DNA from: a virus
Length of the DNA: 64,000 bases
Strand: one strand, 5' to 3'
Virus record (IMG/VR): IMGVR_UViG_3300042561_001059
Span: 19,535 to 83,534 of that record
Shown here one piece after another: positions 26,105-36,928 of this stretch. The position numbers and the translations under genes were made by a program. The notes under the pieces are model-generated. The model was given only the letters and a program-made list of their open reading frames with translations, ran no database searches and was not told the origin of the DNA. How positions within the stretch are numbered: the stretch's first letter is position 1; every line of letters begins with the position of its first letter.

Positions 26105-26263
26105 TTATTCAACTGGTTGAAACCACATTACGATTCCGCCTTCACGTTCGGCCCATTCTCTTGTTGCGTACGCTTCCTCTTTTGGAAGTGTTGCGCATTT
26201 TTTTTCATCACCTACATGCCAACAGATATTTACCCTGATCTTCGGGTCTCTTTTTGCTTTCAT
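26105..26263 (-). CDS. Small hypothetical protein (below cutoff)
   Basis: MKAKRDPKIRVNICWHVGDEKKC...; ATGA overlap with the endolysin stop. Confidence 0.55.
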   Translation of the reverse strand: MKAKRDPKIRVNICWHVGDEKKCATLPKEEAYATREWAEREGGIVMWFQPVE

Positions 26264-27354
26264 TTCTCAACAAGAATTGCCCATCCTGTATTTGGCCCGT
26301 CTACTTCCCAGCGACGCAACCAATTTTTGCGGCTGTATTTAATACCTTGTCCAGATTTTGGTTTTGTACTCACATAACCACCATTGCTCATATCTGCTTC
26401 TCCGTAAGGATCGTTAAAAACAAAATGCGTTGGTGTAATCCCTTTGATTACAGACCAATGTCCTCCACCGGAAGGTTTGGCAATGGATCCTTGGTGCAGC
26501 CAACCGACAGCAAGTGGCTTGCCACTATTGATTTCACTTTCAATTAATTTTGTATTTCCATTGGAAACAAACCTTGCATTGAGTCCCAGGTGTCTCAGTG
26601 TTTTTAGCTGAGCCATTGAATCAGTTGTATCACCAAAATTTACACGAATCTTGTTGTATTCATCATCAGAAGCTACCTTCCCATAGAAAGCTGCAATCAT
26701 TGCACAGCTAGAGGAAAAGCATTCCCTAAACCCTTTACCAGACTTATTGTCTAGTTGATAAAAATATGGAACCGTCAATATTTTTTCATTGCTGGTAATC
26801 GGTAATGATCCCAGCTTTTCATTCATAATATTAATTAATTTTTTTGCGTATTCTGGATCTGTAGCATATTGCTCTGTGACTAAAAGCTGGGCGCATTCAT
26901 TTCTATTACTTGCTCTATTTACACCTTTATAAGTGTTGTAGTCTTTATACCAACGATCTACCAGATACTGAACACACGATTCAAGATCTGGAAAATCCAT
27001 GAAATCATCTTTGATTTCAATCCATTTGTTATTGATAAATTCTTTTGTGCCTGCCGTACTTCCTTTACCTTTTAATCCAAAAAAATTGTTTGTGCCAGAG
27101 GTGAACTTACCGTATCCACTTTCTAGCGCCCATTGAGCAGCAACAACTTCTGGAAATTTGGCACCTGCTTTCTTTGCAATTTTTACTAGGTCGTCCCAGG
27201 TGTTGGTTGAGTTTTCTTTTGTTCCTTGTCGGTACTGGGTGGCAAATTCCTCTAAAATTTCAGGTGAAATATTTTTTTGCAGCCACTCCCATGCATCAAT
27301 TTGATGCTTTAAGTCCTTGAAGTTCTTAGCGGCATCAATAAGTTTTATTGACAT
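26260..27354 (-). CDS. Endolysin: GH73 glucosaminidase plus C39-like peptidase
   Basis: AQWALESGYG..NNFFGLK..YATDPEY; VPYFYQ..CFSSSCAM..GHWSV..NDPYG. Confidence 0.88.
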   Translation of the reverse strand: MSIKLIDAAKNFKDLKHQIDAWEWLQKNISPEILEEFATQYRQGTKENSTNTWDDLVKIAKKAGAKFPEVVAAQWALESGYGKFTSGTNNFFGLKGKGSTAGTKEFINNKWIEIKDDFMDFPDLESCVQYLVDRWYKDYNTYKGVNRASNRNECAQLLVTEQYATDPEYAKKLINIMNEKLGSLPITSNEKILTVPYFYQLDNKSGKGFRECFSSSCAMIAAFYGKVASDDEYNKIRVNFGDTTDSMAQLKTLRHLGLNARFVSNGNTKLIESEINSGKPLAVGWLHQGSIAKPSGGGHWSVIKGITPTHFVFNDPYGEADMSNGGYVSTKPKSGQGIKYSRKNWLRRWEVDGPNTGWAILVEK

Positions 27355-27368
27355 TTTATTTAAACAAA

Positions 27369-27968
27369 CTAGTTCTCAACTGTTTCAACAAGGTCCCACT
27401 GTTGTGCTTCTTCGTTCCATTCATATTCACCAGTCTCAACTGGTTTAGCAACAGGTGCTTCCCATTTACCAGTCATTGCAACCTGGATCCAACTTGGATA
27501 AGGTTGGGTTGCATCTGAAAGTTGCGGCCAGACTGGATATTCAGGCCCGGTGATAAATGCTGCTAACTCGTCGGTTGTCGTCGTTGCTTCAATAGCCGTA
27601 ATTTTGGTGGTACATGCAAGCCGAATTGCTTGACGCCAATTCTTTGTTTCTGTATCTATTGCAATTCCTTCGTCAACTTGCCTGACGATCATCCAATCGG
27701 TTGGCAACAAAAGAGTGTATGCAGTTTGATTTGTGTTTTGGTCCCAAGTGGAAACCAATTGTGTGTGATCTTTCGGAATTAAGTGCCCTTCCGAATCGTA
27801 CCCCCAATAGAACCTTTGGTCCCAAGTCGGGGGATCTGGAACTTCTTGAATGCCAATAGCTTGTTTTTCTTCCCAAGTACTAAGCTTTAGCCAATTGGCA
27901 GGATAATTAATGCCATTATGACTAAAAGCTGAGTCGGGCGCCAAGGGCCTACCATCTAAAACAAACAT
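27369..27968 (-). CDS. Tail-fibre-associated/assembly protein
   Basis: YPANWL..DQRFYWG..LLPTDWMIVR..WRQAIR, typical of tail fibre chaperone-like proteins. Confidence 0.65.
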   Translation of the reverse strand: MFVLDGRPLAPDSAFSHNGINYPANWLKLSTWEEKQAIGIQEVPDPPTWDQRFYWGYDSEGHLIPKDHTQLVSTWDQNTNQTAYTLLLPTDWMIVRQVDEGIAIDTETKNWRQAIRLACTTKITAIEATTTTDELAAFITGPEYPVWPQLSDATQPYPSWIQVAMTGKWEAPVAKPVETGEYEWNEEAQQWDLVETVEN

Positions 27969-28061
27969 TGCTTTTCTATTCTGTATATTTATTTTAACCT
28001 AGTTTCTTATTGACTTCATCTCTAACAGCTATTAAAATTTTGACACTTAATATTTCAAACT

Positions 28062-28916
28062 ATGTCAACTTCGATCCAAGAAGCCTGGGCCAACTTTAAA
28101 ACAGAGCGCTCAATCGTCCTTTGCCCTACAAGTTTAACTTCTGATTATGTGGTGGTTGACAAGTGGTTAAAAAAATGTCCGATAACTGATCTTACTCAAG
28201 GAAGACAATTAATGACCTGGGTGCTCCAGCAGAAGCCAACCAAAACAAGTAGGCGAGTGGCTATGTATGTCAAAAGCCTTTATCGATGGGCAACCAACGA
28301 AGATATTGCATTGGTAGAAAGAAATCCAATTTTGTCTTTTAAAATGCCCAAGGCGCCCCAGGAGGATGAAGAAATTATTGTCATTCCTCGTAATGAGGTT
28401 TCAATTGTTATTTCAGCCCTGGAAGGAAAGTTAAGAAAACCTAAATACAATTGGGCCTTCTATTCAGAATTCATGCTGCAAACTGCCATGAGAACTGGTG
28501 AAGTAAGAGCGTTGCGCTGGGAGGACATTAAAGACAACAAGATTCTTGTCCATTCAAACTACACTCTTACTCATGGACACAAAGATTCAACAAAAACAAA
28601 TCGTAAACGATGGGTTCCTCTCAACCAGCGTTGCCAAGAAATCCTAGACAAAACACCAAGAGAAGATTCCTACATCTTTCCTTACAACAGATATGCATTT
28701 CAAAGTTATTTTTACGATCGCATGAAAGAGTTAAAGAAAGAAAACGTAATTACACATCGTTATCGTCCTTATGATTTAAGGCATACCGCAATCTCTCGTT
28801 GGATTGAATCACAAATTCCTGTTGCGCAAGTTGCTTCATGGGCTGGCAACAGCTCAGAAGTTATTTGGAAACATTATTGCAATGTGACCCAGGAATACGA
28901 AATGCCTGTTCTTTAG
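28062..28916 (+). CDS. Tyrosine recombinase (core-binding plus catalytic domains, no evident arm-binding domain)
   Basis: TAMRTGEVRALRW (R), TKT (K), YDLRHT (HxxR variant), AGNS, WKHY (Y); 284 aa. Confidence 0.92.
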   Translation: MSTSIQEAWANFKTERSIVLCPTSLTSDYVVVDKWLKKCPITDLTQGRQLMTWVLQQKPTKTSRRVAMYVKSLYRWATNEDIALVERNPILSFKMPKAPQEDEEIIVIPRNEVSIVISALEGKLRKPKYNWAFYSEFMLQTAMRTGEVRALRWEDIKDNKILVHSNYTLTHGHKDSTKTNRKRWVPLNQRCQEILDKTPREDSYIFPYNRYAFQSYFYDRMKELKKENVITHRYRPYDLRHTAISRWIESQIPVAQVASWAGNSSEVIWKHYCNVTQEYEMPVL

Positions 28917-28925
28917 TGGAAGCGA

Positions 28926-29078
28926 CTACTGGGCTTTACCAGCAAGCGCCATTGCTCGGTTTTCTTCGTCTTTGACTGCTTGTCGGATCTGGCAAAGCAC
29001 ATGCTCTTCAGCCTTGGCGTTGCCGGAATCAATGGCAATCAAAAGCCTGATACAGAGTGAACGGTAATCAGCAGGCAT
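28926..29078 (-). CDS. 50-aa cassette-like ORF (below cutoff)
   Basis: MPADYRSLCIRLLIAIDSGNAKAEEHVLCQIRQAVKDEENRAMALAGKAQ; its stop TAG is one arm of site 28914. Confidence 0.6.
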   Translation of the reverse strand: MPADYRSLCIRLLIAIDSGNAKAEEHVLCQIRQAVKDEENRAMALAGKAQ

Positions 29079-29092
29079 AAAAGTTGGAATGA

Positions 29093-29320
29093 CTACTGGG
29101 CTTCAAGCTCGGTGGCGATGGCGAGGAGTTCTTCGCGAGTGTCTTGCTGAGCGATCCAAGTTGCCTCTTCCCAGTTATCCGCGTCCATGGGCTTCCGACG
29201 CTGCGGCACCACCTCATCCGCAACAGCTCGCAGGGCGGCGGCAATCTCGTCAGCAGGTGCAGGGCAGATTTCACGCACAGCATCCAACACCGCCTGCGCG
29301 GCGGGGGAGAGGTCAGTCAT
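29093..29320 (-). CDS. Small hypothetical protein
   Basis: MTDLSPAAQAVLDAV..AAALRAVAD..ELEAQ; its stop is one arm of site 29081. Confidence 0.65.
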   Translation of the reverse strand: MTDLSPAAQAVLDAVREICPAPADEIAAALRAVADEVVPQRRKPMDADNWEEATWIAQQDTREELLAIATELEAQ

Positions 29321-29666
29321 TGATCTGCTCAAGGGCACGGAGAAGGATGTTGTAGTGAGCTGCGTCCAGTTCAGCATCTTCCAGCACTGCGATGGCCTGC
29401 TCCTTCAAGCTCTGCGGCTTGGGGCGGCGGGCGGCGCGGAGTTGCCGAGATTCACCAGACCAGCCTTCTTTATCCAGCCACTCACAGCACGCCTCCAGCT
29501 CCTGGTCGGCAGCGGCCTGGATTTCAGGTTCGCGTCGCCACCAACCCCATTGGGCAGCGCAACGGGCAATGTGATGAGCATATGGAATCGAACGATCGTC
29601 ATACGCTGTGGTTTCCCACTGATGCACCAGCTCTGGCGGCGGGGTGGTGGGGTGTTGGTTAGTCAT
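29313..29666 (-). CDS. Small hypothetical protein, paralogue of 29659-29994
   Basis: HPTTPPPELV..DQELEAC..RRPKPQSLKEQA. Confidence 0.65.
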   Translation of the reverse strand: MTNQHPTTPPPELVHQWETTAYDDRSIPYAHHIARCAAQWGWWRREPEIQAAADQELEACCEWLDKEGWSGESRQLRAARRPKPQSLKEQAIAVLEDAELDAAHYNILLRALEQIND

Positions 29667-29994
29667 CGAGTTGCTCCAGGGCGAGGCCAATGATCTGAAC
29701 GGCTTCAGTTGTGTCCATCTGAGATGCAGTGGCATCATCCAAATGCTCTAGCGCAGCCAGCGCCTGCTCCTTTAAGGTCAGCGGTTTAGGGCGACGGGTT
29801 TTGCGCAGGTCACGAGCCAGACTTTCGCCTTCGTGGAACTTAACGAACGTCACGCACGCCTCCAGCTCCTGGTCGGAACCCCATTGAGCAATAGAGGCAA
29901 AGACATCCGCGATGCCATGAGGCTCGACAAGCGAAGCCCATGCTCGTACCAGCTCTTCTGGTGGCGTGATCGGGTGCTTGTAATCTTGGGTCAT
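29659..29994 (-). CDS. Small hypothetical protein, paralogue of 29313-29666
   Basis: HPITPPEELV..DQELEAC..RRPKPLTLKEQA; GGAGG upstream of the ATG. Confidence 0.7.
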   Translation of the reverse strand: MTQDYKHPITPPEELVRAWASLVEPHGIADVFASIAQWGSDQELEACVTFVKFHEGESLARDLRKTRRPKPLTLKEQALAALEHLDDATASQMDTTEAVQIIGLALEQLDD

Positions 29995-30200
29995 CGTCGA
30001 TCCTCCAATCGGCGGTCACAGGGGCAGGGTGTTAGCGCACCGCTGCTCCACCACCTTACCACCCTGCCAAGCCAGCTAACACGTCCAGCACCACGTGTTA
30101 AGAAATTGGCGTTTTGTTAACTTCAGGGGCTTGTATTGTCAACCCTATTGTCAACCTCGTCATCGTGCGCGGGCAGTAGAAGGCTTGTTCTCTAGTGGGG

Positions 30201-33200
30201 TCAGCGGGCGCGGGCGTATTGGAAGGGCGATTCGGCGAAGGCGGCGTAAATAAAAGTTGCTCCAGATGCGTTGACGCGAGTGTCTGATGAGCGAGCTTTA
30301 AATCCATTGGAAACAATGTCAAAAGGCCATATATCTGCATCCGCCTGCGAGGAATTGAATAGCAGGTCGTTGCCTGCTGTGTTGTACGGACTCCGCGCAG
30401 CGTCGTAAACACGCCAATCGCCGGTTGAGTCGGACCTCTTGATAAAGAAATACCTCGGCCTAAACCCGGTGTACACAAACGGCCCATCCGCGCTGCCGTT
30501 GCCGGTGTAGCTGCCGAAACTAGAGTACCCGGCTACTGGGGTAAAACAGTAGCAAATATGGTCAAAGCTGTTGCCCCACCATGAGAGATCACCTCCTGTA
30601 AATACTGTTGATGTTGGTTCTGTGTTGTTCCAAGGGTATGTTTGCGTGTCTGCAGCGTTTGTCAGGTTTAACCGCAGGAATTTTGTAGCTCCTAGTGCAG
30701 AGTGGTAAACAGACCATGCGCCGCCAGCCCCTGTCGCCTTGTCGATAATCAGAGCCGGTTTGGCGCCCAAACCATGCCCCACGGTGAACGGTGATGACGT
30801 TCCCGTGTTGAACTTGACAATTGAAAATCCCGCCGTCGTGTTGGCCCTGACACTAGAAGTGATGGAGCCTTGTGTGTTCGTGACGGTGGAGCTTCCGGCG
30901 TCCCAGGTCCAGGCGACGTAGGTATTACCAGAAGCATTGACGTCACCGTCAGGATTAGAGCCCAAGGAAAACCCGCCTGAATCAAAAGACGTAAGGGAGT
31001 TGGTAAATGTCGCTTCTGCGCTTGTAGTGCTGCTGGCTAAGCGCTGTGTGGCACCTCTAACAATGTCATAAAGGGAATGGTTGCCAGTAGTATTTCTGAC
31101 CTTTGCCCACACCAAATCAGGGCTAAACGCAAGCCCGGTGATGTTTTGTGTTGCCCCTGTGCCCGTATACAGCTTCACGTCCATCACCGTATTAGGCTTT
31201 GTGACTAATGGCGCGGGCAAGTTTGTCGTGCAGAGCGCTTTGAAGCCGCTGGGGGCCGTGTAGGCGAAGGGGCGGGCACCTGCGTTAAAGACCGCACTTG
31301 TGCTGCCACCATTTCCTGTGGCGAACGTATACGGCCCGTTTGTTAGACCCGAATACGCCTGCCCTTGACTCGCGCCGTTTTTGTAAAAAGTAAGTGTTCC
31401 AGCGTCGGCATCAAAAGCAACACCGATAACATCGTTTGTAGTGTATGAGGCGCCGTAAGATGTTGCGCTGTTATTTGTGTACTTGTTCCCGTTGTCTGCG
31501 TAGTAACCCCAGCTATCAGCGTTGCCACCGATAAAAGTTGTTGCAACCGTGCCCGCGGCTCGCTGTAAGCCGAACATATTAGAGACGCTAGTGGCCGTAA
31601 ATTCGCAGTACCATTTGCCACTGCTAATAGCGATAGTGCTCTGAGCGATGACCGACCCAGTGCTAGTGGCGGTCCAGTCGAGGTTTCCGTTGCTCAACGT
31701 GCAGTTGGCTTGCTTGCTGAGGGGATTGAGCGTCGCATAATTCCCCCTAACCTCACCCCCCACGCCCGTATCCGTCTGCGCCCCATTAGTGGGAACGTCT
31801 ACGAGGGAATCGTTAGCCGCTGCAACCGAGCCGATAACGGTGGAACTGGGCGGGTTGAAATTGCCGGTGTACTTAGCTGCACCTACATACACACGGAAAT
31901 CCTGCAGCGAACCATTGAAGTTTTGAGCTGCACCGCCATCAGTGGCGCCAATACGAATGGTAATTGAGCCTGAATCTCCGACGCTGCTTGCACTGCTGTA
32001 GGTGGATGTTTGCAGACCATTGATGTACATCGCCCAGGATGAGCCAGATCTCACAACAGCGAAGTGGCTCCACGCTCCTTGGGTCAGGTTTGTGTTTGAG
32101 CTAAGGATTGCTGAGCCGCCGCCAATTGAGTTCACAAACCAACCAAGAATTGTGTTGGCGCCTTGGCCGCAGGTCAGGTTGTAACGCCCAGCTTGCCATG
32201 TATCAGTGTTGCTGAAGATTGAACCGCCGGTTGAAGCGTTTGGATAAATCCAGCCTTCAATCGTAAAGTCAGATGAGCCAAAAACTATGTCATGCGTACC
32301 TGCAATACTCAGGAAATCGCCTGAGCCATCAAGCAAACCGCTGCTGCCATAAAACTTGCTTAGCCCGGTATTGGTCTTGGCATTACCGTTTGCCGTTACC
32401 GTTTTGGCGCTTCCACTGCCTTTGATCGTTGCGCTCTCGTCGGTAAATGTAGTCCCGTTATTAGCGCCATCCATTGGAAGCGCTAGACGAATCGAGCTGC
32501 TGTTGCTGTCTGTGCGGGTGCCGGTGCCTTTGGTTGTGCCGTAGGTGTCGGTGGTGTTGTAGATCGGCAGCGCACCAGATGCTGCAGCAACGGAAGTTGG
32601 GCCACCAGTGTTAATGCTGACGTTAAACGGGGTCCAGTTGTTCCCGTTGCCACTAGTGTCCTTCCCTAATGTGGTCGCGGTATTGCTGCTGTTGTCCGCG
32701 AACTCCAGATGCCAGCCTTGCGAGCCGTAGCTGCCGGTGTACGCCTTGGGGATAAGCTGGCCGGTAGTGGCGTCGGTTTCGGTGAAGCTGCTGGGGGTCA
32801 GCGCTTGGCCGTCGATGAAGTAGATGTCGGCTAGGTAGCCGGGGAAGAAGTTAGAAGAATTGAAAGTGTTTCTTCCAATATTGTGTGAAAGGGTAGAGTT
32901 TACGGCTGTATCTAAATTCAGTGTTGGAGCTGCGTTCGTGTCAAAGACGGTAATCTCTTCTCCGTTGACGTACATTTTTACTCTATTAGATGCGGTCGCC
33001 TGTGTGGTATCTACTGCAACCATTACATGATACCAAGCGGAAACATCCCTATAAACAGCAGTTGTACGCCTTAGCTCAGCCGATCCAGTGCCGCATGAAA
33101 ATTTATCGTTGGTAAAAGAAACCTGAAAATAGGTTCCTTCCGCCAAAGACGTTCCAACAATAAATAGTGCGTGCTCTCCTGATGCTTGGAGCCCACTCCG

Positions 33201-33374
33201 CTTCACCCATCCCGCCCAGGTCCAGGTGGTGCGGTTGCCCGCAGATGCGGGGGTGCGGGACAAGTAGGCACTGTCACTACTATTGAATCTGAGACTTCTG
33301 GAAATAGAGTATCCTCCAGCACCGCCTCCTTGTCCAGACGCGCCAATAAGACCGTTGTTGTGGAAGATACTCAT
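30201..33374 (-). CDS. Multi-domain tail/receptor-binding protein (LamG/ConA-like and SPRY-like domains)
   Basis: WTWAGWVKR..WYHVMVA, DFTIEGWIY..WSHFAVVR, SGKWYCEF..DVIGVAFD; ends FAESPFQYARAR. Confidence 0.8.
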   Translation of the reverse strand: MSIFHNNGLIGASGQGGGAGGYSISRSLRFNSSDSAYLSRTPASAGNRTTWTWAGWVKRSGLQASGEHALFIVGTSLAEGTYFQVSFTNDKFSCGTGSAELRRTTAVYRDVSAWYHVMVAVDTTQATASNRVKMYVNGEEITVFDTNAAPTLNLDTAVNSTLSHNIGRNTFNSSNFFPGYLADIYFIDGQALTPSSFTETDATTGQLIPKAYTGSYGSQGWHLEFADNSSNTATTLGKDTSGNGNNWTPFNVSINTGGPTSVAAASGALPIYNTTDTYGTTKGTGTRTDSNSSSIRLALPMDGANNGTTFTDESATIKGSGSAKTVTANGNAKTNTGLSKFYGSSGLLDGSGDFLSIAGTHDIVFGSSDFTIEGWIYPNASTGGSIFSNTDTWQAGRYNLTCGQGANTILGWFVNSIGGGSAILSSNTNLTQGAWSHFAVVRSGSSWAMYINGLQTSTYSSASSVGDSGSITIRIGATDGGAAQNFNGSLQDFRVYVGAAKYTGNFNPPSSTVIGSVAAANDSLVDVPTNGAQTDTGVGGEVRGNYATLNPLSKQANCTLSNGNLDWTATSTGSVIAQSTIAISSGKWYCEFTATSVSNMFGLQRAAGTVATTFIGGNADSWGYYADNGNKYTNNSATSYGASYTTNDVIGVAFDADAGTLTFYKNGASQGQAYSGLTNGPYTFATGNGGSTSAVFNAGARPFAYTAPSGFKALCTTNLPAPLVTKPNTVMDVKLYTGTGATQNITGLAFSPDLVWAKVRNTTGNHSLYDIVRGATQRLASSTTSAEATFTNSLTSFDSGGFSLGSNPDGDVNASGNTYVAWTWDAGSSTVTNTQGSITSSVRANTTAGFSIVKFNTGTSSPFTVGHGLGAKPALIIDKATGAGGAWSVYHSALGATKFLRLNLTNAADTQTYPWNNTEPTSTVFTGGDLSWWGNSFDHICYCFTPVAGYSSFGSYTGNGSADGPFVYTGFRPRYFFIKRSDSTGDWRVYDAARSPYNTAGNDLLFNSSQADADIWPFDIVSNGFKARSSDTRVNASGATFIYAAFAESPFQYARAR

Positions 33375-33380
33375 TTCAAA

Positions 33381-33689
33381 TCACCAAGGAACGCCTGCTG
33401 CTTTGCTGGGACGACGCTGTTCTTCAAGTTGTGACTGAAGTGCGTCTTCAATTTCAGCCACTTTTTCGTCGCCAAATTTTTCTTTCACCCAACCAATGAC
33501 CATGTCTTCGGTCAGATTGGCGAAAGAAACCATAGGAGTTTCAGGGCGCTCCAGGCCAATGGAGCCATAAGCACCAGCGGAGTAGGTATCGTCTTTGGCG
33601 TCGACGGTGTAGTGGACGGTAAACACATAACCGTCACTGGTTTCGCGCTCAAGCTGAGCAACTTTCCAGGTAAAAGCAGTAGTCGTCAT
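33381..33689 (-). CDS. Small tail-fibre-associated protein
   Basis: FTWKVAQLER..FANLTEDMVIGWVK..GVPW. Confidence 0.65.
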   Translation of the reverse strand: MTTTAFTWKVAQLERETSDGYVFTVHYTVDAKDDTYSAGAYGSIGLERPETPMVSFANLTEDMVIGWVKEKFGDEKVAEIEDALQSQLEEQRRPSKAAGVPW

Positions 33690-35080
33690 GAGTAGTTGGC
33701 AGTAAAGACCGTGTGGATAGACGTGGAACTACGAACAATATAGTCCACCCTATCTACAGCGTTGGCAGCGGTACTTAGCGTGGGCGCCGTGCCACCAGGG
33801 AAGTCCCAGTAAGAACCCCAAGAAGCTGTCCTACCACCAGTTCCATCTTGAACGAGGAAGATACTTCCGCTTTGACCGGCGGTAATATTCGTGGGGTTTG
33901 CGATTGTACGTGCTCCACCCAATGTGACTGTAAAGTTACAATCTGCTGCTAAATCGGGGGTTATCGTTGCGCCATCGGTCAGTGTACCAATGACAGCAAC
34001 AGCGCCATTTTGAATAGTGACAACACCATTCTGTGCAATCCTCATCCTTTCTGTTGGAGAAGAAGCGCCGTCAGCAGTAGTGGAGAACACTAGTCTGCCC
34101 GGCATATCGTTAGTGCCGGGGGTGCCGTCTACACGGCATTCAATAAGTGCAGCTCGGATGTAACCAGTTCCGTCCGCACCCGCAAATCGAATATCTCCAA
34201 GGAAATCACCATCTACAACGGAAGCAAATCCACCCGCCGTTGTTGAGCGTGTCTTTTTAAAATAAACTGCGCCAGCAAAAGCGTCATTTGAAAAATGCCC
34301 AAAGTCCGCTGTGTAATAGTTGCTGCTGTTGGTTGTTACTTGAAGCCTTGCATCTCCTTGACCATTGGTAACGCTACTAGACGTGCCAACTAAGAGCCTG
34401 CCGGAGTTGTCGATGCGGGCGCGTTCTGATGCGGCGTTAGCCCCTCCGGTATGGATAGCAAGTGCTCCGTTGCTTCCCGAAGGTACAAGCAGTTTGGCAT
34501 AATTAGAGCCCGTGATATTAAAGTTAAACGCTCTGGCTGAGTCCGCTGCTGCACCAGGGTCAAATTCAATAGTTCCCCCAACCACATCAAGGCGCCCTAC
34601 AGGGCTCGTAGTGCCAATCCCTAGTCGGTTATTGGTCGCATCAAAGAAGACGCCACTTGACCCGCCAAGCTGAATATCACCGTCCGCTTGTATCTCTAGT
34701 CTCTTGGTCCCATTAGTTGAGATGGCTACTTGGTCAGCGCCTGGAGAGTAAAGACCGGTGTTGGAATCGCCGGTAAATGAAATCGAAGGGCTTGCTGCTG
34801 AACCAGCCGCAAAAACACCAGAAGTAATGGTATATGTGCCGCCACTGATATTGGTAAAGTTACCGCTCGTAAAGGTTGCCGTGGTGCCAGTTACGGTAAT
34901 ACCGCTAACAGTTGTAAATGCTCCAACGGTTCCGGTAACTGTTACGCCGGAAATAGTTCCGGTACAAGTTACGTTTCCACTAAATGTTGGGTTTTGAACT
35001 AATCCAGAAATCTGAATGCTTTTGTCGACACCAGCATCTGTAAATGTGATGGTATCAACTTTAATAATTCCGTACGGCAT
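33686..35080 (-). CDS. Tail fibre protein
   Basis: T/G-rich shaft, NTGLYSPGADQVAIST, RLGIGTTSP, ERARID..GRLLVGT, GRLVFST, QDGTGGRT. Confidence 0.8.
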   Translation of the reverse strand: MPYGIIKVDTITFTDAGVDKSIQISGLVQNPTFSGNVTCTGTISGVTVTGTVGAFTTVSGITVTGTTATFTSGNFTNISGGTYTITSGVFAAGSAASPSISFTGDSNTGLYSPGADQVAISTNGTKRLEIQADGDIQLGGSSGVFFDATNNRLGIGTTSPVGRLDVVGGTIEFDPGAAADSARAFNFNITGSNYAKLLVPSGSNGALAIHTGGANAASERARIDNSGRLLVGTSSSVTNGQGDARLQVTTNSSNYYTADFGHFSNDAFAGAVYFKKTRSTTAGGFASVVDGDFLGDIRFAGADGTGYIRAALIECRVDGTPGTNDMPGRLVFSTTADGASSPTERMRIAQNGVVTIQNGAVAVIGTLTDGATITPDLAADCNFTVTLGGARTIANPTNITAGQSGSIFLVQDGTGGRTASWGSYWDFPGGTAPTLSTAANAVDRVDYIVRSSTSIHTVFTANYS

Positions 35081-35116
35081 GGCAGTTCTTTTTCTTTTAT
35101 TATTTTACTTTAAGTA

Positions 35117-36928
35117 TTAAGGCAAAATAATTAACGGTCCTTTGATAATAAATCCGCTGGTGCTACCAGAAACAACACCTGAGCATGTAATCGCTACTGT
35201 TGAACCAGAAGGCTGCGTAATATGAAGCGTTTGTCCCGTTATGTTTGTAAATAAACCCGCAGTTCCTGTAATTGTTTGACCAGATACGGTTCCGGTGACA
35301 CTTATACCAGAACCAAAAAATCCAGATCCAAGGGTAAATGTATTACCGGAGAAAGTAAAGTCTCCAGAAAAACTTTGATTTGCAGCTTGTAGATATTCAA
35401 ATACGCCTGAAGTACCTCTAATAATATTGCCGGTGATTGTTTGACCTGAGACTTGAGTTGTGAAGATGCCAGAAACACTGGTAAGAGTGGTGCTGTTAAT
35501 TGTGTTACCAGTGATCGTGTTGCCGCTTATCTGTGTAGTAAATACGCCGCTTACACCGCTAATCGCTTGGAAATTAATTGTTCCACCAGTGATCGTGGCA
35601 CCTGTAATGCTATTGAATCCAGCAGACTGACCAGTTAACGTCGTGAACTGTCCGGTATTGCCGGTAATTGTGGCACCTGAAATCTGAGTAGTGAAGACGC
35701 CTGATTGAAAATTTGCTATTGTTCCGGTAACGGAAGCACCTGAGATTTGAGAAGTAAATACTCCAGAAACTCCAGTGATTGTGGTGGCACGTACCGTATT
35801 TCCTGTAATGACCAGGCCGCTTAACTGACTGGTAAATACACCAGATACTCCTGTAATAGTTGTTGCATTTACCGTATTTCCGGTAATTGCGGCGCCAGAG
35901 ATTTGGCTGGTAAAGACTCCTGAAACAAAATTAGCAGTTGTACCGGTAACCGTAGTTCCAGTTACAGTAGTAAACCCTGCTGTATCACCCGTAATAACCG
36001 TGCCACTTAACCGAGTAAAAACACCGGAAGTGAAATTAGACGTGGTTCCTGTAACCGTTACTCCACTTAAAGTTCCACTGATATTGACGCCTGACGAAAA
36101 GAATCCAGATCCAAGTACAGAAAGATTGCCTGAAACGGTCAGGTTGTTTTGAACGGTATGGCCACTGGTAACCAGAGTTCCAAAGGTTCCCGTTGTTGCG
36201 TTTACTGTATTTCCAGTGATTGTGGCCCCTGAAATACGATCGGTAAACGTACCGCTAACAGCAACAACGTTGGTAAATCCACCGAGACTTCCGGTTACAA
36301 GCGTTCCGGAAACCTGGGTAGTAAAAACGCCTGATTGGAAATTAGCCGTAGTTCCGGTAATGGTTGTACCAGTTACGGTTGTAAATCCGGCCGTATTTCC
36401 TGTTAAAGTACCAAACTGACCAGTGGTGCCAGTAATTGTCGTTCCTGTTAACGTCCCACTTACCGTTACGCCAGACGTAAAGAAAGAGTTGCCGCGTGCA
36501 AATAAAGTTCCACTGACAGTTAAATTATTTTGAACGTTGTGTCCACTGGTGGTTAGTGTTTGGAACGTTGCGTTTGTAGCGTTTACATTAGTTCCGGTCA
36601 GCGTGGTACCACTGATCGTACCTGTGACTGTTAAATTATTTTGTACAAAAACGGCATTGAAGTTAGCAATGCCATTGACATTAGCAGCACCAAGGGTAGT
36701 TGTTCCAGTAACTTCAAGAGTGCTGTTGATTAAAAGTGGTCCAGTCAGTACACCGCCTGTGAAAGTTAAATATTTTGTATTTAAGTAGTTTGCAAATTCA
36801 GTTAAGGTAATTTTTTTATTTTTAAGCGTCGGGTCAACTTCGAATACGTGAACAATCGTCAGCAAATCGTCCTCTGCTAACGACCCGCCCTGAATTGAGG
36901 GCAATTCCGTAATCCTTCTATTTGACAC
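35117..36928 (-). CDS. Long T/G/S-repeat tail fibre shaft protein
   Basis: Many SGVFTxQISGxxITG / TGTT repeats. Confidence 0.75.
   Translation of the reverse strand: MSNRRITELPSIQGGSLAEDDLLTIVHVFEVDPTLKNKKITLTEFANYLNTKYLTFTGGVLTGPLLINSTLEVTGTTTLGAANVNGIANFNAVFVQNNLTVTGTISGTTLTGTNVNATNATFQTLTTSGHNVQNNLTVSGTLFARGNSFFTSGVTVSGTLTGTTITGTTGQFGTLTGNTAGFTTVTGTTITGTTANFQSGVFTTQVSGTLVTGSLGGFTNVVAVSGTFTDRISGATITGNTVNATTGTFGTLVTSGHTVQNNLTVSGNLSVLGSGFFSSGVNISGTLSGVTVTGTTSNFTSGVFTRLSGTVITGDTAGFTTVTGTTVTGTTANFVSGVFTSQISGAAITGNTVNATTITGVSGVFTSQLSGLVITGNTVRATTITGVSGVFTSQISGASVTGTIANFQSGVFTTQISGATITGNTGQFTTLTGQSAGFNSITGATITGGTINFQAISGVSGVFTTQISGNTITGNTINSTTLTSVSGIFTTQVSGQTITGNIIRGTSGVFEYLQAANQSFSGDFTFSGNTFTLGSGFFGSGISVTGTVSGQTITGTAGLFTNITGQTLHITQPSGSTVAITCSGVVSGSTSGFIIKGPLIILP

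Follow-up and report, generated by a model that had tools for sequence, protein, structure and literature searches.

Introduction

Tail-fibre mosaicism sets the host range of phages, and one known means of keeping fibres exchangeable is to set conserved boxes between their variable segments. In T-even phages, the distal fibre and the gp38 adhesin carry glycine-rich conserved motifs that lie between hypervariable segments, and exchanges take place in or near these motifs (Tetart 1996/1998, cited in Trojet 2011, PMC3157838). The locus described here belongs to a freshwater cyanophage and lies in a stretch of viral DNA of 64,000 nucleotides (the window; positions 19535-83534 of the 83,534-bp record IMGVR_UViG_3300042561_001059), in which 15-bp sites of the form TAG-N9-CTA recur through two tail-fibre genes. 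By analogy, its closest known counterpart appears to be the T-even design of conserved motifs and hypervariable segments. In both cases a gene for host recognition is built of variable segments with short conserved boxes between them, exchanges map to the boxes or their vicinity (here inferred from sequence patterns) and, as far as the account of Trojet 2011 goes, no dedicated recombinase takes part. The proteins are unrelated, however, as the locus encodes LamG, SPRY and DUF7483 domains and a cyanophage fibre repeat without gp37/gp38 homology in Pfam, and palindromic TAG/CTA ends at a fixed spacing of 9 bp do not belong to the T-even motifs as that source describes them. The best reading of the sequence comparisons is that the boxes punctuate two tail-fibre gene families of picocyanobacterial phages. 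Such an architecture of fibre genes is of a known kind, apart from one sequence signature that has no explanation; a recombinase or crossover mechanism is not supported.

Other described systems resemble the locus in part. In the R64 shufflon (Rci) and the Gin, Cin and Hin invertase systems, a recombinase gene adjoins tail-fibre genes and short repeated sites lie within genes. Here, in contrast, there are no inverted alternative segments, the arms measure 3 bp and the sites also occur in genomes without a recombinase. The core sites of tyrosine recombinases consist of inverted arms several bases long around an overlap of 6-8 bp, and arms of 3 bp are far below those of lox, att-core, dif or sfx-type cores. 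A PF00589 integrase is present in some members of the lytic-looking T7-like cyanophages (P-SSP7, S-TIP37), where, according to the part of Shitrit 2021 that bears on it, the attP used by the enzyme has its match in a host tRNA-Leu gene (PMC8776855). No tRNA-like attP was found beside the integrase of the present locus, and the gene lies downstream of the fibre module. Lastly, the operator consensus given for the cyanobacterial LysR-type regulator NdhR/CcmR, ATAG-N8-CTAT (PMC13249358), likewise places TAG and CTA half-sites at a distance of roughly one helical turn and comes from the same group of hosts; as presented there, it differs by a spacer of 8 instead of 9, by its flanking A and T and by a promoter-proximal instead of an intragenic position.

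Enrichment of the TAG-N9-CTA pattern

The window holds 15 TAG-N9-CTA sites, against a mean of 8.46 (standard deviation 2.62) in dinucleotide shuffles of the whole window, and the complete record holds 19. A pattern search places 13 of the 15 within 28914-34728, an interval of 5815 nt referred to below as the island. All 13 coordinates agree with those of the first-pass annotation, an earlier description of the window made by eye, and so does the lack of sites in 26260-28913 and in 34729-36928. With 76 TAG and 49 CTA triplets in the island, about 0.65 pairs are expected per spacing. When the spacer length k is varied from 0 to 30, k=9 gives 13 pairs and each of the 30 other values gives 0-2, including k=6, 12 and 15, which have the same codon-phase relation as k=9. 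The spike at k=9 alone that had been predicted for the island is thus obtained; outside the island, the window has 2 sites at k=9 and 0-12 at other values. In a scan of all pairs of 3-mers at spacers 0-24, comprising about 100,000 pattern-spacer combinations, TAG-9-CTA ranks first (13 vs 0.65, Poisson 3e-13), and the next unrelated pair reaches 8e-6.

Twelve of the 13 sites lie within genes, eight in a gene of 1057 amino acids (gene A) and four in a gene of 464 amino acids (gene B). The thirteenth, at 28914, consists of two convergent stop codons. In 3000 synonymous, codon-preserving shuffles, 0.67 sites are expected in gene A (maximum 5), where 8 are observed, and 0.80 in gene B, where the observed 4 are reached by 13 of the 3000. 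For both genes together the shuffle mean is 1.46 and the maximum 6, against 12 observed, so that the enrichment over codon-aware shuffles, which the first-pass annotation had made a test of its proposal, was found. The adjacent gene of 603 amino acids, equally rich in Thr, Ser and Gly, has no site against 0.26 expected under the same shuffles. Shuffles that additionally keep the junction context, i.e., the first base or bases of the next codon, raise the expectation to 1.2-1.8 in gene A, with 0 of 2000 reaching 8, and to 0.9-1.2 in gene B, with 2-23 of 2000 reaching 4. The enrichment is real, and chance, base composition, codon usage and codon-junction context were rejected as its explanation on the spacer, 3-mer-pair and shuffle counts.

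The sites have little in common besides their ends. When one representative of each of 41 aligned positions is compared, no wider consensus appears and only TAG and CTA are conserved, so the arms common to all sites measure 3 bp each. The extension to TAGT-N7-ACTA that had been pointed out at 28914 and 34078 holds at these 2 of the 13 sites. Nine intragenic sites read xTA Gxx xxx xxx xCT Axx and encode [LV]-x-x-x-[TSP]-[TSN]; the three others read xxT AGx ... xxC TAx and encode S-x-x-x-Y, so that both codon phases are present. Paralogy of the boxes was rejected because their spacers are unrelated. A bipartite restriction-modification target was set aside as well, as the sites are confined to two genes; a cognate enzyme was not searched for. 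Searches of the literature, supplementary files being outside their reach, gave no match to the pattern in several spellings and nothing on such boxes in cyanophage fibres.

Conservation in relatives of gene A

Relatives of gene A number 387 in viral contigs. The best 80 loci (43-72% identity) were analysed, and 74 distinct sequences were aligned by codon. Summed over the 80 loci, k=9 gives 306 sites and the other spacings 26-140, an excess that arises because sites are inherited at homologous places. In the 74 homologues, 149 of 194 sites occupy six aligned positions, each with its own nearly invariant 15-mer. These are codons 32, 236, 525, 723, 947 and 951 in the numbering of this phage, and they carry the site in 24, 21, 41, 24, 22 and 17 sequences, respectively. 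Six positions are common to at least 15 sequences at k=9, compared with 0-1 at other spacings. All six lie in blocks with 60-90% nucleotide conservation. Outside these columns the A genes contain 45 sites, against 50.9 expected over whole genes, and the other open reading frames (ORFs) of the 80 loci contain 60 against 54.8, 11 of which fall in two A homologues cut by contig ends. Since there is no excess in either place, new sites are not being made, and ongoing site creation was rejected. A Roseobacter-phage homologue (43% identity) has one site where 0.86 are expected; it encodes VxGYSxFGSY without the TAG-N9-CTA motif, and the protein therefore does not force the DNA pattern.

Conservation in relatives of gene B

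The B family is an independent replicate of the site pattern of the A family. Ten of 20 distinct B homologues have 3-5 sites each, against 0.23-1.32 expected, and the remaining ten, which are short or low in guanine-cytosine (GC) content, have none. The 11 long B genes together give 38 sites at k=9 and 0-13 at other values. A further 119 B genes, found via one box that was then removed from the count, have 314 sites at k=9 and 4-92 at other values; 429 of the 441 sites of the further B genes are in one codon phase, on one structural motif. The B boxes fall on a recurring strand motif of the fibre repeat, with the versions VAISTN, LGLGTS, VGIGTS, VGIGTT, LVGTS[ST], LVFSTT and LVQNPT. The same 15-mers are found in cultured Synechococcus phages: in S-H1, four of six genomic sites lie within the tail-fibre coding sequence, S-CBP3 has five sites in one gene and S-B28 has three in gp08.

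The five codons inside a B-family box are frozen while the flanks drift. In repeats that were picked by peptide, the major-codon fraction is 0.88 in the five box codons (30 columns) and 0.67 in flank columns with conserved residues (67 columns). The class-a box, [LV]GIGTT, is spelled GGG ATT GGC in 10 of 10 peptide-selected repeats, followed by ACT in all 8 that have Thr; the 2 with Ser have TCT. The flanks of VGIGT repeats share about 39% identity, and the codon that follows is unconstrained at its third base; the B boxes stand as 15-nt islands amid otherwise unalignable flanks. With the spacer as the sole anchor, four boxes retain TAG and CTA in 80-96% of copies, except for the final A of CTA in LVGTS (61%); upstream third positions reach 41-70%. 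In prokaryote genomes (596 Gb) the class-a 15-mer has at least 120 matches where about 1000 are expected by chance, and the context is fibre-like in 12 of 82, so that these matches carry no information on the boxes.

Mosaicism and exchange

The A and B genes are strongly mosaic, with the sites in conserved boxes between variable or optional segments. In the A protein a whole LamG-type domain (about codons 255-515) is optional and lies between sites 32654 and 31787. Most relatives have the short form, in which 31815-32627 is missing and the starts of the flanking boxes are separated by 84 nt. Site 32654 lies 26 nt from the junction at 32628, and site 31787 lies 13 nt from that at 31814. At another place this phage is identical to one relative (L010) upstream, and to a second (L013) downstream, of a shared 96-nt block in which site 31193 lies. 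The changeover maps to 33 nt around that site, but as this stretch is identical in all three sequences, it is uninformative on the site itself.

Similarity-segment ends, collected from 2701 pairs of A sequences, cluster at codons 696-703, 178-182, 57-61, 821-823 and 838-839, and near some sites. Compared with random windows of similar conservation, the six sites show no enrichment of such ends (fraction of random placements with at least the observed value 0.06-0.83; 2701 pairs). The correlation between upstream and downstream pairwise identity is r 0.04-0.37 at five sites and -0.09 at the sixth, and at 12 motif-free conserved control anchors it ranges from -0.16 to 0.47. Linkage is thus alike at sites and controls, which indicates that conserved boxes in general break linkage and that the palindrome adds nothing measurable. 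The first-pass annotation had expected identity breakpoints on the 15-mers, and neither this comparison nor the edge of the island bears that out: the near-identity to a 96%-identical contig (L012) tails off within the B gene, at about 34860-34906, which leaves at least 130 nt to the closest site. Of its broader idea that the sites divide the receptor-binding proteins into exchangeable modules, the mosaic genes and the placement of the boxes between variable or optional segments stand; the role of the sites as crossover points for a recombinase does not.

The B fibre itself seems to be composed of a conserved N-terminal anchor and an imported distal part. Its first approximately 74 codons are of the backbone type and the remainder lies in the GC-rich imported part. 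The segment 34860-35080, which encodes these codons, and the sequence onward to 38000 match L012 at about 96% identity. The fibre of L012 itself is a low-GC protein of 337 amino acids without boxes; hence the GC-rich module begins inside the B gene. The GC content is 0.49-0.59 over 29000-34999 and 0.37-0.47 in the flanks, in agreement with the GC-richer island that had been noticed by eye. In relatives the A and B genes have a GC content of about 0.5, in loci that range from 0.39 to 0.58. Among the 278 ORFs of at least 60 amino acids in this 83.5-kb record, 27 match two complete relatives (G001, G002) or S-H1 in tblastn, mostly in the fibre-lysis block, and the relatives that bear the same fibre module are genomes of 39-47 kb, compared with 83.5 kb here. 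One fibre module is therefore in use on phage backbones that differ widely. Most likely, the A and B families travel together as a GC-rich module between phages that differ greatly in size and GC content.

The stretch is present in lake-water metagenomes, and its natural population was viewed through the contigs of four of 24 runs, each with pieces at >=99% identity; rare forms and molecule ends are invisible in such contigs. One contig of run X5 represents the short A form without the LamG domain (31814 to 32627). In relatives' contigs of X5 and X10 similarity begins exactly at 34078, and divergent contigs of X3, X5 and X10 share a 21-nt identity island over box 34378-34392. Molecules joined from site to site, which the first-pass annotation had suggested looking for, are absent from the contigs of the four runs, in which rare forms would be missed. 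Below the fibre genes, contigs of runs X3 and X5 skip 28937-29080, between the direct repeats 28915-28936 and 29082-29103 (82% alike, 13 bases exact) that bracket a 50-aa ORF, which is thus present or absent in the population. One X3 contig lacks one copy of the paralogous small ORFs (joint 29388 to 29756).

The adjacent integrase

As had been annotated, a tyrosine recombinase of 284 amino acids on the plus strand converges on the minus-strand genes; it matches PF00589, and its TAG stop codon is the left arm of site 28914. In four full homologues (L013, L026, L055, L076), however, the integrase ends in TGA or TAA, so the stop-codon site is private to this phage, and the sequence downstream of the integrase is not conserved among these four. 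Among the 80 loci, 4 have a full integrase homologue beside the fibre gene and 3 a fragmentary one. G001, with 8 sites in its A gene, and G002, with 7 sites, are complete genomes with direct terminal repeats (DTR), and neither has a match to PF00589 or PF00239. Only one (G005) of five whole related records is positive in a PF00589 search, and no serine recombinase was found in this record (G000), G001 or G002. The co-occurrence of sites and recombinase, proposed as a test in the first-pass annotation, consequently fails. No tRNA was found in the window and no tRNA-like Rfam match in 27000-35200; the sole Rfam match, to the CRISPR-DR model at E 4.7, was discarded as noise. The sites are independent of any recombinase gene, and the integrase is taken to be an ordinary, sporadically carried integration gene.

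Interpretation

The twelve intragenic sites are inherited copies of some dozen nucleotide-conserved boxes in mosaic fibre families, and the reading in which these boxes offer short homology for general recombination is given about an even chance. The GC-rich fibre module would have brought the boxes into this phage. Between co-infecting relatives, they would act as short stretches of identity for general recombination, either homologous or of an annealing type, and such recombination would shuffle the variable parts of the fibres. A lineage would remain exchangeable as long as it retains the common spelling, by which all 15 bases would become frozen. For the shared TAG/CTA ends the best guess is that a symmetric protein that binds DNA or cuts junctions might use them as half-sites, its gene lying elsewhere in the phage or in the host. 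The adjacent integrase did not create the boxes and does not use them.

Several points weigh against this view of the boxes as short homology. The shared TAG/CTA ends are real and are left unexplained by it, and no reader protein for them was found. Two proteins alone are common to the four genomes compared (this phage, G001, G002, S-H1), namely the B fibre and a small helical one (p111/p141); the latter has more than 1000 unnamed homologues, an all-helical model with a predicted local distance difference test (pLDDT) score of 81 and no Foldseek match in the PDB at E <= 0.001. Exchange is inferred from mosaic patterns, no recombination event having been seen directly, and most relatives are metagenome assemblies that are possibly chimeric at shared words, although three isolates carry boxes. 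Fifteen identical bases are short for efficient homologous recombination. In the A family, other blocks that are equally conserved and frozen lack the motif, and TAG...CTT replaces TAG...CTA in 16-18 sequences at three of the hot columns. The synonymous conservation that was to be expected at the sites is seen in the boxes of the 464-aa family but not in the 1057-aa family, where site windows rank at 13-91% of all windows and are not unusual. The contrast between box and flank codons in the B family (Mann-Whitney 4e-6) comes from related sequences and is not a true probability.

The ends are at the centre of an unlikely but specific alternative, in which the 15-mers are recognition sites of a symmetric binding, nicking or junction-resolving protein other than the integrase, which starts or resolves exchange while the spacer keeps the register. 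It accounts for about 12 independent boxes with only palindromic ends in common, at a fixed spacing and in both codon phases, for the frozen spacers of the B family and for the fact that the base outside the box varies (with a Leu/Val switch) while a synonymous A inside it is kept. There is, however, no candidate protein common to the carriers, the sites are no better junctions than motif-free boxes, TAG...CTT variants are common in the A family and no new sites are found in the 74 homologues. A fuller form of this idea, which we consider quite unlikely, is a register-keeping system of fibre exchange in which the frozen spacer is an address and the ends are read by a symmetric nicking or junction-resolving enzyme, again not the integrase, to give in-frame swaps. 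If true, receptor-binding segments would be swapped between co-infecting phages of different families and GC contents. Doubtful too is a purely coding origin, according to which the sites are by-products of peptide motifs ([LV]-x-h-x-T-[TSN] strands, linkers) with codons fixed by selection on translation, for instance for paced folding or trimer assembly; the palindromic look would then follow from xTA-G and xCT-A junctions. The single phase and structural motif of nearly all B-family sites, the location of three A sites at domain junctions and the end codons, which finish in A or T though the gene is GC-rich, agree with such an origin. Against it, shuffles that keep protein, codon usage and junction context expect 1-2 sites and not 8 and 4, spacer codons are mostly common GC-ending ones that differ between box classes, and the Roseobacter-phage homologue has the peptide without the motif. 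Moreover, 9 of 11 xTA-G positions with a compatible +4/+5 pair also have xCT-A, a coupling beyond independent codon choice.

The remaining explanations have far less in their favour. That the adjacent tyrosine recombinase cuts and rejoins at TAG-N9-CTA and so swaps receptor-binding modules, as proposed in the first-pass annotation, is now extremely improbable, even though the PF00589 gene abuts the module with its stop as a site arm, sites flank the optional domain and every box has its own conserved spacer, as would be the case for register-keeping crossover sites. Complete relatives with 7-8 sites have neither a tyrosine nor a serine recombinase, and adjacency is limited to at most 7 of 80 loci. 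In addition, the stop-codon site is not conserved, the arms are 3 bp only, breakpoints are not enriched and site-to-site joints are lacking in the contigs of four runs; the T7-like cyanophage integrase, for its part, is described with the tRNA-Leu-matching attP mentioned above (PMC8776855). Binding sites of the host regulator NdhR/CcmR, tuning fibre-gene expression, have next to no probability either: the half-sites resemble the published consensus (PMC13249358), but at k=8 the island has 1 site, the flanking A and T are absent, the sites are intragenic and not upstream of operons, and a frozen spacer is not expected of such an operator. Pure coincidence, a spelling accident multiplied by inheritance, is very improbable. 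Most of the excess in relatives does stem from six inherited positions, with none elsewhere; yet two unrelated families have 6-7 independent boxes each where fewer than 1 is expected per gene, and among about 100,000 combinations the next unrelated pair falls short of TAG-9-CTA by seven orders of magnitude.

Read as short-homology boxes or otherwise, about a dozen boxes in two unrelated fibre families, in phages of 39-83 kb, have the same three-base inverted ends at one fixed spacing. A protein that reads these ends, if there is one, would add a new and testable element to the evolution of host range in aquatic cyanophages, which are abundant. If there is no reader, the locus warns that an integrase next door and a conspicuous number of palindromes can together suggest a system that does not exist.

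Gene organization of the locus

The features of the locus are listed in Table 1. The minus strand from 35080 to 28926 is one unbroken run of ORFs; in line with the first-pass annotation, no inverted silent alternatives are present and no alternative C-termini were found.

Table 1. Genes and TAG-N9-CTA sites of the fibre locus, in window coordinates
Feature	Position	Strand	Matches and occurrence
Tyrosine integrase, 284 aa	28062-28916	+	PF00589 E 2.2e-16, residues 129-276; PHROG integrase phrog_1 E 1.2e-37
GC-richer fibre module, probably imported	28917-34900		about 0.49-0.59 GC in a backbone of about 0.40
Site of two convergent TAG stops	28914-28928		left arm integrase (+), right arm 50-aa ORF (-)
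Small GC-rich ORFs below the fibre gene	28926-29078 (50 aa), 29093-29377 (94 aa)	-	
Small GC-rich paralogous ORFs	29313-29738 (141 aa), 29659-29994 (111 aa)	-	phrog_32006
Fibre/virion protein A, 1057 aa, mosaic, 8 sites	30201-33374	-	two Laminin_G_3-type, SPRY, DUF7483 (Pfam; PHROG)
Overlapping sites SSFGSY / VAGYSS	30508-30522 / 30521-30535		in 17 and 22 of 74 distinct homologues
Site LASSTT, rare in relatives	31025-31039		2 of 74 sequences, this phage counted
Site LVTKPN, linker before DUF7483, conserved	31193-31207		24 of 74
Site DSWGYY, inside SPRY, rare in relatives	31501-31515		common with L010
Site VDVPTN, after optional LamG, most conserved	31787-31801		41 of 74
Site LGKDTS, before optional LamG, conserved	32654-32668		21 of 74
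Site SSDSAY, near N-terminus, conserved	33265-33279		24 of 74
DUF7936 protein, 102 aa, between fibre genes	33381-33689	-	PF25590 E 6e-33
Tail fibre B, 464 aa, 4 sites	33686-35080	-	PHROG tail fibre; no Pfam match
Box LVFSTT	34078-34092		identical 15-mer in 6 of 11 long homologues and S-CBP3
Box LVGTSS	34378-34392		identical 15-mer in 5 of 11 long homologues and S-CBP3
Box [LV]GIGTT (class a)	34609-34623		also S-H1, S-B28; 17-mer in at least 120 viral contigs
Box VAISTN	34714-34728		B-family homologues
Fibre-like gene, 603 aa, low-GC, no sites	35117-36928	-	

The DUF7936 protein between the two fibre genes has a 67% identical copy that adjoins the fibre gene of S-H1. The gap between the stop codon of the A gene and the small ORFs (30023-30156) contains a 12-nt inverted repeat (30023-30034 / 30057-30068) and an exact 11-nt tandem pair (30134-30144, 30146-30156), which may be terminator or promoter elements.

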